Source: Escherichia coli
Lineage (GTDB): Bacteria; Pseudomonadota; Gammaproteobacteria; Enterobacterales; Enterobacteriaceae
Length of the DNA stretch: 59,866 nucleotides
Reading direction: 5' to 3' (one strand)
Assembly: GCF_003334385.1 (NCBI RefSeq)
Contig: NZ_QOWN01000029.1
Under the pieces are notes generated by a model, which had not been told where the DNA came from, ran no database searches, and saw nothing but the letters and a program-made list of their open reading frames with translations. Made by a program: the position numbers and the translations under genes. Shown here in pieces: positions 98 through 59,866 of the stretch; the first letter of the stretch is position 1; each line of letters starts with the position of its first letter.

Positions 98-431
98 GTG
101 TTCCCCGCGCCAGCGGGGATAAACCGGTCATCACGATGAATCAAAATTTCGCCCGGCTGTGTTCCCCGCGCCAGCGGGGATAAACCGCTTCTCCACCGTT
201 TGGCGAATCGGTGTGAGGGGTGTTCCCCGCGCCAGCGGGGATAAACCGAATCTATTGTGAATTTGAAATGGTCCAGCACTGTGTTCCCCGCGCCAGCGGG
301 GATAAACCGGGTAAAAACACGGTCTGAACCGACATTCATGTGTGTTCCCCGCGTCAGCGGGGATAAACCGGGCGCACTGGATGCGATGATGGATATCACT
401 TGGAGTTCCCCCGCCCCTGCGGTAGAACTCC
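98..431 (+). CRISPR. Type I-E CRISPR array, 6 repeats and 5 spacers (iap-proximal trailer end)
   Basis: 29-nt repeat GTGTTCCCCGCGCCAGCGGGGATAAACCG at 98-126, 159-187, 220-248, 281-309, 342-370 (one C>T), with 32-nt unique spacers; degenerate terminal repeat GAGTTCCCCCGCCCCTGCGGTAGAACTCC at 403-431. Orientation matches crRNA sense on + strand. No cas genes in window. Confidence 0.95.
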
Positions 432-452
432 CAGCTCCCATTTTCAAACCCA

Positions 453-1490
453 TCAAGACGCCTTCGCCAGCTCCTTCACCAACGGTAGCATTATCCGCAT
501 AACGTCACGGCAGCGACGTTCTATTCTTCCAGGAAGTGCCTTATCAATATGCTGTTGATTATCCAGTCTTACGTCATGCCAGCTATTTCCCGCAGGGAAT
601 GCGGCTGTTTTTGCGCGTTGCTGATAACCATCCTTATTCCCAAGATTCCAGTTAGTCGCTTCCACCGAAAGTACAGCAATGCCCGCTTTGTCGAATATTT
701 CTGCGTCATTACAACACCCAGTGCCTTTCGGATAATTTTTATTCAAACCCGGATTGGTCGTTGCGGCTATTCCGTGACTGCGCGCAATTGCCAGCGCCCT
801 GTCGCGCGTTAATTTCCTTACTGCTTCAGGGGTTTTTACACCGCTGTTGAAATACAATTTATCGCCAACAATTAAGTTATCGAGATTAATCACCAGCAGC
901 GTATTTTTCTTTTCGGTGTCACTCATCCGCTTGAGTAAATTCTCAGCGCCTAATTTCCCTTCCTCTTCGCCGCTGGTCGCCACAAATCGAATACCATACT
1001 CGGTAGGCGTATTTTTCAGGCGTTCTGCCAATTCCAGCATGACACCTAAACCTGCGGCGTTATCATCCATTCCTTGTAACGTCAGCCCGCCGAGATTGGC
1101 ATCGGCGTCAGCATCGCTCAGCGGGGCGTAAGTATCCAGATGCGCCATAATGATGATCTGCTGCGGCGCTTTGCCTTCATGAGCGGCAATCACCGTACTT
1201 CCTGTCACGTTATGCCAGTTCTTGCGATTATCGCGGGCGGTATAAATATACCGACTATTAAATGTCCGAATATCACTGCGATAACCCATTTGCTGAAACT
1301 GTTGGCGAATATAATCGGCAGATAACATTTCTGCTGGAGTTCCGGTCATGCGTCCCGGAAAGAAAGTAGCAATATGTCGTGCCTGGGTATTAGCAAAATC
1401 GCCAGGTTTAGGTGACGAGGCGTGTACGGGGAGAATAAAGCATACGCCGAGCGCTAGGGCAGCGGTACGGTGGCGCAATGCGGAAAACAT
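453..1490 (-). CDS. iap: Alkaline phosphatase isozyme conversion aminopeptidase
   Basis: 345-aa ORF with signal-peptide-like N-terminus and M28-peptidase-like sequence; classic position convergent with the CRISPR array. Confidence 0.9.
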   Translation of the reverse strand: MFSALRHRTAALALGVCFILPVHASSPKPGDFANTQARHIATFFPGRMTGTPAEMLSADYIRQQFQQMGYRSDIRTFNSRYIYTARDNRKNWHNVTGSTVIAAHEGKAPQQIIIMAHLDTYAPLSDADADANLGGLTLQGMDDNAAGLGVMLELAERLKNTPTEYGIRFVATSGEEEGKLGAENLLKRMSDTEKKNTLLVINLDNLIVGDKLYFNSGVKTPEAVRKLTRDRALAIARSHGIAATTNPGLNKNYPKGTGCCNDAEIFDKAGIAVLSVEATNWNLGNKDGYQQRAKTAAFPAGNSWHDVRLDNQQHIDKALPGRIERRCRDVMRIMLPLVKELAKAS

Positions 1491-9317: not shown

Positions 9318-10457
9318 ATGAGCGCGGGAAGCCCAAAATTCACCGTTCGCCGCATTGCGGCTTTGTCACTGGTTTCGCTATGGCTGGCAGGCTGTTCTGA
9401 CACTTCAAATCCACCGGCACCGGTCAGCTCCGTTAATGGCAATGCGCCTGCAAATACTAATTCTGGTATGTTGATTACGCCGCCGCCGAAAATGGGGACG
9501 ACGTCTACAGCGCAGCAACCGCAAATTCAGCCGGTACAGCAGCCACAAATTCAGGCTACTCAACAACCGCAAATCCAGCCAGTGCAGCCAGTAGCTCAGC
9601 AGCCGGTACAGATGGAAAACGGACGCATCGTCTATAACCGTCAGTATGGGAACATTCCGAAAGGCAGTTATAGCGGCAGTACCTATACCGTGAAAAAAGG
9701 CGACACACTTTTCTATATCGCCTGGATTACTGGCAACGATTTCCGTGACCTTGCTCAGCGCAACAATATTCAGGCACCATACGCGCTGAACGTTGGTCAG
9801 ACCTTGCAGGTGGGTAATGCTTCCGGTACGCCAATCACTGGCGGAAATGCCATTACCCAGGCCGACGCAGCAGAGCAAGGAGTTGTGATCAAGCCTGCAC
9901 AAAATTCCACCGTTGCTGTTGCGTCGCAACCGACAATTACGTATTCTGAATCTTCGGGTGAACAGAGTGCTAACAAAATGTTGCCGAACAACAAGCCAGC
10001 TGCGACCACGGTCACAGCGCCTGTAACGGTACCAACAGCAAGCACAACCGAGCCAACTGTCAGCAGTACATCAACCAGTACGCCTATCTCCACCTGGCGC
10101 TGGCCGACTGAGGGCAAAGTGATCGAAACCTTTGGCGCTTCTGAGGGGGGCAACAAGGGGATTGATATCGCAGGCAGCAAAGGACAGGCAATTATCGCGA
10201 CCGCAGATGGCCGCGTTGTTTATGCTGGTAACGCGCTGCGCGGCTACGGTAATCTGATTATCATCAAACATAATGATGATTACCTGAGTGCCTACGCCCA
10301 TAACGACACAATGCTGGTCCGGGAACAACAAGAAGTGAAGGCGGGGCAAAAAATAGCAACCATGGGTAGCACCGGAACCAGTTCAACACGCTTGCATTTT
10401 GAAATTCGTTACAAGGGGAAATCCGTAAACCCGCTGCGTTATTTGCCGCAGCGATAA
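9318..10457 (+). CDS. nlpD: Lipoprotein NlpD (LysM / M23 peptidase domain, amidase activator)
   Basis: 379-aa ORF, lipobox LAGCS, proline/glutamine-rich repeats (QQPQIQP x4), LysM and C-terminal M23 domain. Confidence 0.95.
9919..9954 (+). promoter_or_regulatory. Candidate major rpoS promoter inside nlpD (-35 TTGCGT, 17-bp spacer, -10 TATTCT)
   Basis: Motif inspection; the predicted start (~9954) lies ~567 nt upstream of the rpoS ATG, matching my recollection of the long rpoS 5' UTR. Not verified. Confidence 0.4.
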
Positions 10458-58926: not shown

Positions 58927-59112
58927 ATGCTGATTCTGACTCGTCGAGTTGGTGAGACCCTCATGATTGGGGATGAGGTCACCGTGACAGTTTTAGGGGT
59001 AAAGGGCAACCAGGTACGTATTGGCGTAAATGCCCCGAAGGAAGTTTCTGTTCACCGTGAAGAGATCTACCAGCGTATCCAGGCTGAAAAATCCCAGCAG
59101 TCCAGTTACTAA
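58927..59112 (+). CDS. csrA: Carbon storage regulator (RNA-binding global regulator)
   Basis: 61-aa [64 protein letters not shown]. Confidence 0.98.
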
Positions 59113-59427
59113 TCTTTCCGCGTCTCATCTTTATCGGTGAGACGCACCCTCAAAATTTCTCCTTCACTCTATAGTCTTTTCGCTTTACTCCCGTTCATTC
59201 AACTTAAGTCTCCATTTTTTTGCATTACTACTATCTGTCAGACCTCCATTCTTCTGTTGATAAAACACTCTTTTTGACGTTTTTACAGACTAATTGAACG
59301 TGAAGTGTGCAAACGATAAAAGTGTAGGAAAAATTGTTTGACTTATAAGTCTCAGAAAGTAATATGTGCGCCACGCAGCGACGATGAGCGATAAACAAGT
59401 TCTTCGAAGCACTCGTAAGAGGCGTGT

Positions 59428-59520
59428 GGTGAGGTGGCCGAGAGGCTGAAGGCGCTCCCCTGCTAAGGGAGTATGCGGTCAAAAGCTGCATCCGGGGTTC
59501 GAATCCCCGCCTCACCGCCA
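59428..59520 (+). tRNA. serV: tRNA-Ser (anticodon GCU), 93 nt with long variable arm
   Basis: GGTGAGGTGGCCGAGAGG...CCCCTGCTAAGGGAG...GGTTCGAATCCCCGCCTCACCGCCA; cloverleaf with anticodon GCT and encoded CCA. Confidence 0.95.
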
Positions 59521-59523
59521 TTT

Positions 59524-59600
59524 GCATCCGTAGCTCAGCTGGATAGAGTACTCGGCTACGAACCGAGCGGTCGGAGGTTCGAATCCTCCCGGATGCACCA
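59524..59600 (+). tRNA. argV: tRNA-Arg (anticodon ACG), 77 nt
   Basis: GCATCCGTAGCTCAGCTGGATAGAGTACTCGGCTACGAACCGAGCGGTCGGAGGTTCGAATCCTCCCGGATGCACCA; anticodon ACG, encoded CCA; only 3 nt after serV. Confidence 0.95.
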
Positions 59601-59798
59601 TATTCTACGTACTTTCAGCGATGAAGGTATGGAAGAGGTGGCGGTAATAACCGCAGGCACCAGGGAGGATAACGTTGCTTTAGCAACGGCCCGAAGGGCG
59701 AGCCGCAAGGCGAGTAATCCTCCCTGATGCACCATCTCTTACTTGATACGGCTTTAGTAGCGGTATCAAAAAATCTGCAGTAAAGTAAGTTTCCCGAT

Positions 59799-59866
59799 GC
59801 ATCCGTAGCTCAGCTGGATAGAGTACTCGGCTACGAACCGAGCGGTCGGAGGTTCGAATCCTCCCG
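59799..59866 (+). tRNA. tRNA-Arg (anticodon ACG), second copy, truncated by the window edge
   Basis: Identical to argV over the 68 nt present; the window ends before the last 9 nt. Confidence 0.9.

Follow-up and report, generated by a model that had tools for sequence, protein, structure and literature searches.

The locus and its spacers

The 59,866-nucleotide stretch of Escherichia coli DNA analysed here, referred to as the window, ends within the csrA-serV-argV-argY locus, and the region under study, positions 59601-59798, is the spacer of 198 nt that separates the tRNA-Arg genes argV and argY (Table 1), just as an earlier reading made from the letters alone (the sequence-only reading) had described it. 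The wider gene order in E. coli is alaS-csrA-serV-argV-argY-argZ-argQ-yqaB, with csrA directly upstream of the serV-argVYZQ operon. In a promoter scan of the + strand covering positions 1000-2600 of the locus sequence, in which 1238-1265 corresponds to 59338-59365 of the window, the site upstream of serV was the sole promoter-like site, and neither a promoter-like nor a terminator-like site was found on the + strand inside the array. In RefSeq, no feature is annotated in the argV/argY spacer or in the other arg spacers, and the open reading frames listed for the array overlap the tRNA genes.

A comparison of all spacers in the complete arg locus, which had been proposed as a check on the spacer's nature, explains its composition. 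These spacers are 198, 62 and 198 nt long, and one more related copy follows argQ. Because the 62-nt spacer between argY and argZ repeats the sequence found in the final 64 nt of the 198-nt ones, the latter can be divided into an insert of 134 nt (59601-59734 in the window) and 64 nt of ordinary inter-tRNA spacer, within which lies a further hairpin at 59743-59769. The first base of the insert is the one that follows the CCA of argV, and its 3' end duplicates the tRNA tail; beyond it the ordinary spacer resumes, and the presence of the insert regenerates the same 'CCA + spacer' junction that is found between argY and argZ.

Table 1. Coordinates of genes, spacer parts and predicted RNA elements at the end of the window
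Feature	Position	Strand	Remarks
Sigma-70-like promoter of the serV-argVYZQ operon	59338-59365	+	TTGACT-16-TAATAT
serV, tRNA-Ser(GCT)	59428-59520	+	
argV, tRNA-Arg(ACG)	59524-59600	+	final 19 nt, AATCCTCCCGGATGCACCA, are the repeated tail
raV, short-form tRNA-linked repeat (TLR)	59601-59734	+	Rfam RtT match (33.1-34.3 bits), alignment with tyrT RtT, name from the literature
Hairpin A	59608-59631	+	10-bp stem including two G.U pairs, loop GCGA
Hairpin B, GCGG-TAATAA-CCGC	59641-59654	+	in each of the 5 pairs counted (GCGGT with ACCGC), both sides vary between genera
Closing helix, 5' strand GCACCAGGGAGGAT	59657-59670	+	87.8% of cells paired, 3 pairs compensated
Core hairpin 1, CGTTGC-TTTA-GCAACG	59673-59688	+	fold, tyrT alignment, Arg-type alignment
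Core hairpin 2, GCCC-GAA-GGGC	59689-59699	+	nearly invariant in the family; part of the search motif
Core hairpin 3, GCC-GCAA-GGC	59702-59711	+	stem sequence varies freely, hairpin retained
Copy of the tRNA-Arg 3' end	59716-59734	+	3' strand of the closing helix plus single-stranded ACCA
Rare SNP, T for G	59725	+	creates the A-U pair that perfects the 10-bp repeat
Ordinary inter-tRNA spacer	59735-59798	+	stands alone (62 nt) between argY and argZ
argY, tRNA-Arg(ACG)	59799-59866	+	identical second copy of argV, truncated by the window end

Identity of the insert

The insert is raV, the TLR located behind argV, an element that is already known. The sequence-only reading offered no annotated function for the spacer, which holds as far as RefSeq is concerned, but the element had long carried a name as a TLR and is a relative of RtT. 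According to the citations in Stenum et al. (2021; PMC8144298), TLRs were first described by Egan and Landy in 1978, and their count in K-12 goes back to Rudd in 1999. [quoted passage not shown] The EcoGene names raV, raZ and raQ for the arg copies are likewise taken by way of this source, whose strain table lists a deletion 'argY/Z/Q, raQ/Z/V' at 2815672-2816445 (PMC8144298).

From the other K-12 TLRs, raV differs in nothing essential: it sits in the same position behind a stable RNA gene, possesses a tail copy of 18-19 nt and the common core, has several copies at its locus, and is itself an entry in the K-12 catalogue, the window copy being set apart by a rare substitution, T for G, in its tail. 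When the shift between MG1655 versions is applied, the interval 2815672-2816445 presumably extends from raQ over the greater part of raV.

The only specific Rfam family matched by the insert is RtT (RF00391), with 33.1 bits, an E value of 2e-4 and model positions 1-130. Scores of raV range over 33.1-34.3 bits (E 2e-4 to 2.5e-5), below the RtT gathering score of 45 bits, and its sister copies raZ (after argZ) and raQ (after argQ) reach 31 and 22.8 bits; the four tyrT-tyrV repeats of K-12, one of which is annotated as the small RNA rttR, score 133-137 bits. With the tyrT repeats raV has about 65 nt in common, consisting of AACGTTGC-loop-GCAACG, GCCCGAAGGGC, the third hairpin and GAGTAAT, and the alignment has each copy switching to its own tRNA tail, Arg or Tyr, after this common core. 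The exact core motif, GCAACGGCCCGAAGGGCGA, is found at 59683-59701.

raV is thus similar to RtT and rttR in hairpins 1-3 with GAGTAAT, in a closing helix formed by the tail copy, and in the ACCA 3' end, but it is without the 5' domain of RtT, a T-arm-like hairpin and a small GCGAG hairpin placed between closing helix and core (model positions ~20-65). The cmscan alignment skips this part, and in raV the 5' strand of the closing helix abuts hairpin 1; its tail, moreover, is that of tRNA-Arg rather than tRNA-Tyr. The low score of raV, 33 bits where the gathering score is 45, is explained by this short form, in which the T-arm-like domain is absent, and by gathering score and 5' domain raV falls outside RtT as modelled.

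A covariance-model scan, with tRNA pseudogenes in view, had been suggested as a check on the spacer. Neither ARAGORN nor the Rfam tRNA model finds a tRNA pseudogene there, so that this call is rejected, and the RtT match of 33.1 bits was obtained instead. Also discarded were an antisense 'tRNA-Arg(tcg)' called by ARAGORN at 59544-59615 and matches to Plastid-ycf2 and Plastid-psbl-rps4, all of them mirror images of real tRNA genes. Matches to mir-9128, AaHKsRNA22 and Pseudomon-groES lie far below the respective thresholds; among these three families, AaHKsRNA22 is the only one that resembles the core, and it was retained as a lead.

Predicted fold and the rare base at 59725

The spacer was described as highly structured, and its RNA is indeed predicted to fold at -82.5 kcal/mol, compared with -53.9 +/- 4.1 kcal/mol for 200 dinucleotide shuffles (z = -7.0), none of which folds as well. 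In the predicted fold of raV, hairpins A and B on the 5' side are followed by a four-way junction, in which a closing helix of 13-14 bp (59657-59670 with 59717-59730) encloses the three core hairpins and leaves ACCA unpaired. The short hairpins singled out by the sequence-only reading, at 59674-59687, 59689-59699 and 59641-59654, are all present in the sequence, as are the 10-bp inverted repeat, CAGGGAGGAT (59661-59670) pairing with ATCCTCCCTG (59717-59726), and the near-copy of the tRNA-Arg 3' end, AATCCTCCCTGATGCACCA (59716-59734), with 18 of 19 positions matching. As a direct repeat, the tRNA tail extends to 27 nt at 85% identity.

Both the perfection of the inverted repeat and the single mismatch in the tail are due to the T at 59725. 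K-12 carries G at the corresponding position, which is the sole difference between the window and K-12 over the entire spacer, and its tail copy is exact (19/19); a near-copy that differs by one base is therefore a correct description of this window but not a general trait of the element. Among the best 10 of 5407 matching E. coli genomes, SCU-104 alone is 100% identical, the other nine being 99.5% identical, and the 'perfect' 10-bp repeat is a rare variant. In an alignment of 14 Arg-type copies, the pair in question (alignment pair 63-128) is A-U in one copy, and the remaining 13 have an A.G mismatch there or a register with two single-base bulges. Conservation across genera, a second check that had been suggested, accordingly applies to the closing helix, which is kept in Arg-type copies, and the perfect 10-bp form is specific to the 59725 variant. 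By chance, 53 of 5000 dinucleotide shuffles (~1%) contain a perfect inverted repeat of 10 bp or more.

The 5' strand of the closing helix, GCACCAG-GGAGG, resembles an acceptor 5' strand fused to a T-stem 5' strand, and the helix as a whole may, on our own reading of the sequence, mimic the stacked acceptor/T-arm of tRNA-Arg. The tRNA-like structure proposed earlier is borne out in this sense, as a predicted acceptor/T helix that ends in ACCA. In common with minihelices made from tRNA acceptor and T arms, raV would have a helix of the T stem and part of the acceptor stem, the discriminator base and CCA, but the T-loop is replaced by a three-hairpin insert of ~45 nt, and one or two mismatches or bulges interrupt the part that resembles the acceptor stem.

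Distribution of the family

When one genome per bacterial species was scanned with the core motif, at least 120 loci were obtained. In Enterobacterales and Orbaceae (Gilliamella, Zophobihabitans), the motif occurs 50-125 nt behind genes for tRNA-Tyr, tRNA-Lys, tRNA-Arg(ACG) and tRNA-Pro. Among the matches listed, 74 elements lie at most 160 nt behind tRNA genes (Tyr 26, Lys 29, Arg 14, Pro 5), and each of them ends in the tail of its own tRNA, with at least 16 of the last 18 nt in agreement. The tail copy, 18-19 of 19 nt, follows the motif almost always after 30-37 nt and tracks substitutions that are specific to the species, such as those in the tRNA-Arg of Hafnia, Pragia and Pantoea; copies linked to 5S rRNA repeat the 3' end of the 5S gene at their terminus.

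Long forms behind Pro, Lys and Arg genes exceed the RtT gathering score, with 62-94 bits, and the Arg-linked ones reach 70.8 bits in Yersinia and 62.3 bits in Serratia. The gathering score is passed in Marinobacterium and Amphritea as well, and marginally, with 45.2 bits, in Photobacterium. Across Enterobacterales, Orbaceae, Oceanospirillales and Vibrionaceae, the core is nearly invariant while the surrounding spacer drifts, an invariance that is partly built in for hairpin 2 and half of hairpin 1, which the scan motif fixes. Within E. coli, copy number varies, with 1 to 6 matches per genome.

Conservation of the fold

Conservation of base pairing was assessed in 14 Arg-type short forms from ten genera, with slid partners and 500 shuffles as controls. 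Paired cells amount to 85.5%, compared with 32-48% in the slid controls, and 15 pairs change on both sides, compared with 8-10, values that none of the 500 shuffles reaches; the sequences counted are related to one another, and the structure tested was derived from one of them. Independently of these counts, RNAalifold recovers the closing helix, hairpins 1-3 and hairpin B. At the site of hairpin A, other genera hold a hairpin of differing sequence, with 5 pairs changed on both sides. Hairpin 3 exists in 50 distinct versions among 73 distinct elements of all tRNA types, and 42 of the 50 fold with at least 3 bp. These observations support, without proving, the view that compensatory changes maintain these helices from genus to genus. 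On the transcribed strand, G.U cells outnumber A.C cells by 38 to 16, as would be expected of an RNA rather than of duplex DNA.

The closing helix also appears to be matched to its host tRNA. In its type-specific part, the tail of the own tRNA type fits better than foreign tails of Tyr, Lys, Arg and Pro(CGG) type, an advantage that is modest and comes from an anchored test; without anchoring, the noise was too great, as the common ATCC/GGAT prevails. For Tyr and Arg elements, the Pro(TGG) tail is nearly as good a fit as their own. Substitutions specific to the tRNA are followed by the 5' strand of the closing helix as well, and the flanks of this strand are unrelated to tRNA.

Origin of the core

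The long forms indicate where the core may have come from. In Yersinia, the long form keeps tRNA-Arg sequence from the anticodon arm to GGTTCGA, and in Serratia from just upstream of the T stem to GGTTCGA; in both, the core comes next, and then ATC and the tail. In Citrobacter, Phytobacter, Kosakonia and Trabulsiella, the tyrT locus opens with a near full-length tRNA-Tyr-like sequence that is broken by the core exactly after GGTTCGA and whose acceptor 3' strand has decayed. Since the core sits exactly after GGTTCGA in the long forms and in the tRNA-Tyr-like sequences, it appears to have been inserted into the T-loop of a tRNA gene copy, and raV to be a shortened derivative.

Two parts of the sequence-only reading can be judged on this basis. 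A tRNA-derived remnant is supported by the 19-nt 3' end and by the strand that resembles fused acceptor and T-stem 5' strands, and it is partly vindicated by the placement of the core in the T-loop. The idea that the remnant arose from duplication of the arg unit agrees with the tandem-repeat architecture, but the module of ~65 nt is common to Tyr-, Lys-, Pro- and 5S-linked repeats, and a core common to several tRNA types cannot derive from an arg duplication.

Proposed processing of raV

It is proposed that raV is co-transcribed as part of the polycistronic serV-argVYZQ precursor, because no promoter-like or terminator-like site was found on the coding strand from argV to argY, and the tRNA genes farther downstream depend on read-through. 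RNase E would cut the AU-rich trailers just after each CCA, and 3' exonucleases would then trim the ends, stopping at the CCA proximal to the helix; RNase T is inhibited at CC. By analogy with the 171-nt rtT RNA that is released from the tyrT-tyrV transcript, the product predicted for raV would be a stable RNA of ~127-134 nt, and the duplicated tail would serve as a portable signal for 3'-end processing and protection. The annotated rttR begins 7 nt past the tyrV CCA, and its 3' end coincides exactly with the CCA of the tail copy.

A further parallel is offered by RrA, RrB and RrF, which are like raV in having the three-hairpin core and in ending in the 3' end of the upstream stable RNA. They are processed at the tail copy, and for RrB the 3' end maps 3 nt past the 5S-tail copy, both being attributed to RNase E (PMC8144298). 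Unlike raV, they lie behind 5S rRNA in rrnA, rrnB and rrnD, where they are enclosed by the dual terminators (PMC8144298). The sequence-only reading had called the spacer processing-site-like, and a role of the repeated 3' end as a processing signal is a proposal from the literature (PMC8144298).

In sum, raV is most likely a co-transcribed spacer RNA that is excised by tRNA maturation enzymes. We consider it probable, in the fuller form of this view, that the spacer is a TLR released by the tRNA maturation machinery with its tail acting as a processing or protection signal. Tandem tRNA-Arg genes mature with the TLR-free 62-nt spacer between argY and argZ, and raV is therefore not required for their processing. 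A viable strain without all 22 TLRs has been constructed (PMC8144298), and TLRs are thus dispensable in the laboratory. In the account given there, the sole functional claim for a TLR of a tRNA operon linked rtT to the stringent response, in the recovery of cells starved of amino acids, and was later withdrawn (PMC8144298).

Alternative explanations

This dispensability is in line with a more sceptical interpretation, in which raV is a neutral relic, a decayed tRNA copy with an old insertion that was spread by unequal crossing-over and gene conversion and is functionless as RNA and as DNA. The existence of the strain deleted for all 22 TLRs (PMC8144298), the variation from 1 to 6 matches per E. 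coli genome and the working argY/argZ spacer without a TLR all fit such a relic. So do the tRNA-Tyr-like pseudogenes with the core in the T-loop, which occur in several genera and suggest an origin in a damaged tRNA gene, and conversion alone could maintain the identity of the tail with the adjacent tRNA. It is harder to see why a relic should keep its core almost invariant across four groups while the spacer drifts, or show compensatory changes in five helices. The excess of G.U over A.C pairs on the sense strand also speaks against it, as does the closing-helix 5' strand, which follows tRNA-specific substitutions despite unrelated flanks. A neutral relic is accordingly regarded as possible but rather doubtful.

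A function in trans is unlikely, though attractive by analogy: excised raV might bind Hfq or CsrA, or pair with other RNAs, in the manner of RrA, RrB and RrF or of 3'ETS-leuZ. The latter, a by-product of tRNA precursor processing, is reported to act as a base-pairing sponge for sRNAs, and raV, whose sequence is unrelated to it, could likewise persist as a processing by-product. The three-hairpin core is common to raV and the rrB-type elements, its strict conservation suggests a specific partner, and csrA stands directly upstream of the operon. RrB binds Hfq and CsrA in vitro (PMC8144298). However, RrA, RrB and RrF have several exposed GGA motifs along with CsrA and Hfq binding in vitro, whereas the 19 TLRs of tRNA operons, raV included, are predicted to be non-binding, all with values below 0.01 in a predictor for CsrB/C-type RNAs (PMC8144298). 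raV itself has three GGA motifs, one predicted to be single-stranded (59632-59634) and two lying inside the closing helix.

The precision of the insert, with its flanking 19-nt direct repeats that start in the T-loop, calls to mind an element acting at the DNA level, either a cassette, mobile or spread by recombination, at TTCGA|A of the T-loop or the scar of an integrative element, with the 19-nt repeats as duplicated target or att sites. Long forms and tRNA-Tyr-like pseudogenes place the core exactly between GGTTCGA and ATCC, the same core stands behind at least four tRNA types, and Phage_Finder counts RtT among possible phage attachment targets. No associated recombinase was found, however, and the T-loop target is absent from the 5S-linked copies. 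Almost all matches in phage and plasmid collections are misfiled chromosomes: in BLAST searches for distant copies of the core plus closing helix, phage or plasmid carriage came down to misfiled chromosomes, one unannotated 'phage' record of 7 kb and a 'plasmid' fragment of 14 kb, and those matches in viral contigs that carry a genuine RtT lie where the contigs end and probably represent host flank. The G.U strand bias points to RNA, and recombination at the common 13-nt AGGTTCGAATCCT could spread the core equally well. A DNA-level element is therefore thought quite improbable.

A small-protein gene, conceived by analogy with tpr, the gene for a protamine-like protein that is annotated within rttR in the tyrT repeat, is rejected as extremely improbable: the 32-codon frame opened by the ATG at 59629 closes at a TGA that the 59725 SNP creates and K-12 lacks, the frame of raV was read as different from that of tpr across the common core, the array ORFs overlap tRNA genes, and variation follows base pairing rather than codons.

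Implications for tRNA-linked repeats

The invariant GCAACGGCCCGAAGGGCGAG of the core may be a candidate recognition site for a factor. A bolder and distinctly speculative model, to which we assign little likelihood, would treat the core as a discrete module that entered the T-loop (GGTTCGA/ATCC) and was disseminated to Tyr, Lys, Arg, Pro and further loci for stable RNAs, each copy being re-tailored to the acceptor/T helix and CCA of its host; the invariant core would be a putative factor site, and the excised RNAs would act as decoys or sensors of tRNA ends. If this were true, raV-like RNAs would signal or cushion how active the tRNA 3'-end enzymes are, in step with the level of stable-RNA transcription.

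As a rediscovery of a catalogued repeat, raV matters little in itself. RefSeq leaves TLRs unannotated and the RtT model of Rfam misses their short forms, and for this reason TLRs will go on being reported by genome scans as structured spacers lacking an explanation. TLRs are conserved, structured and transcribed together with the most abundant RNAs of the cell, and they have been known for more than 40 years without an established function. The comparative picture yields features that can be tested, namely tail copies that track their host tRNA, helices maintained by compensation, and cores located in the T-loops of tRNA-like pseudogenes.

Other occurrences of the core, and possible relatives

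The core of the tRNA-linked repeats (TLRs) is also present 3′ of 5S rRNA genes, and behind it comes the 5S 3′ end once more, AACTGCCAGGCATCAAAT, as a copy; these elements are TLRs of the rrA/rrB/rrF type. As an upstream GGCAGTT pairs with the 5S-tail copy, the closing-helix rule extends to the 5S-linked TLRs. The tyrT locus of Citrobacter, Phytobacter, Kosakonia and Trabulsiella opens with a near full-length tRNA-Tyr-like sequence, in most cases with GCA rather than GTA as its anticodon, and the core splits this sequence in the T-loop, exactly after GGTTCGA. The acceptor 3′ strand of these interrupted sequences is decayed, and a normal tRNA-Tyr gene lies ~80 nt downstream.

In Pectobacterium zantedeschiae, hairpins 1 and 2 together with a GGCGGACAAGGATTCCGCC hairpin occur in tandem copies, which lack the tail copy, are not matched by the Rfam RtT model and have no same-strand upstream tRNA gene detectable by ARAGORN. 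In addition, window 59651-59728 gave a sub-threshold match (18 bits; threshold 39.8) to AaHKsRNA22 (RF02902), an Aggregatibacter sRNA in Rfam, the consensus of which, AACGuUGGC..GCCAaCG gCcCcaaAgGgGc GAgcg..cgcGAgua, resembles the TLR core; judging from this likeness, TLRs may have a Pasteurellaceae relative in AaHKsRNA22.

Positions of TLR-related features (window or retrieved sequences, L)
Feature	Sequence	Position	Strand	Remark
5S-linked core	L024	170-188		
5S-linked core	L040	388-406		
5S-linked core	L043	7827-7845	-	
5S-linked core	L055	150-168		
5S-linked core	L057, L058, L064, L091, L092			
Interrupted tRNA-Tyr-like	L017	~416-560	-	
Interrupted tRNA-Tyr-like	L030	~1060-1200	-	
Interrupted tRNA-Tyr-like	L066	~167-310	-	
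Interrupted tRNA-Tyr-like	L085	~9890-10030	-	
Interrupted tRNA-Tyr-like	L114	~1020-1200	+	
Interrupted tRNA-Tyr-like	L127	6884 (core)	-	counted on reverse strand
P. zantedeschiae tandem copies	L038	~1000-1200	-	
P. zantedeschiae tandem copies	L037	9722-9740	-	
Terminator-like hairpin	L027	~320-350		ahead of TLR
Terminator-like hairpin	L034	~1010-1043		ahead of TLR
Terminator-like hairpin	L049, L050, L061, L076, L094			ahead of TLR
Viral-contig TLR	L007	46-335		
Viral-contig TLR	L009	4534-4649	-	near contig end
Viral-contig TLR	L012	12216-12644	-	near contig end
csrA	window	58928-59113		immediately 5′ of operon with three TLRs

Genomic surroundings of TLRs

The TLR at many Lys, Pro and long-form Arg loci comes after a strong hairpin that stands directly behind the tRNA and, with its T-run, resembles an intrinsic terminator. 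By analogy with rrB, which sits between terminators T1 and T2 and for which read-through has been reported (PMC8144298), such TLRs would be transcribed by read-through only.

Three IMG/VR ‘viral’ contigs carry RtT-scoring TLRs with Tyr- and Lys-type tails. Because two of the three lie close to a contig end, they are probably host flank beside predicted prophages; Phage_Finder includes RtT as a candidate attachment target. 5S-linked TLRs bind CsrA in vitro (PMC8144298), and csrA adjoins the TLR-bearing arg operon, probably by coincidence, since raV, the TLR following argV (59601-59734), has a single GGA outside helices.

Two kinds of antisense call in this operon were rejected as mirror-image artefacts of real tRNA genes: an ARAGORN ‘tRNA-Arg(tcg)’ (59544-59615, minus strand) and sub-threshold Rfam Plastid-ycf2 and Plastid-psbl-rps4 matches (59524-59598, minus strand).

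Variation in Escherichia coli

The raV tail copy has T at window 59725 where K-12 has G, a variant common to strain SCU-104 only among the best 10 of 5407 matching E. coli genomes. In the predicted fold of raV, this change alters the closing-helix register and lowers the energy from -60.3 to -63.0 kcal/mol. The 198-nt argV/argY spacer has 1 to 6 matches per E. coli genome (median 2), and thus the arg tRNA/TLR array grows and shrinks between strains.
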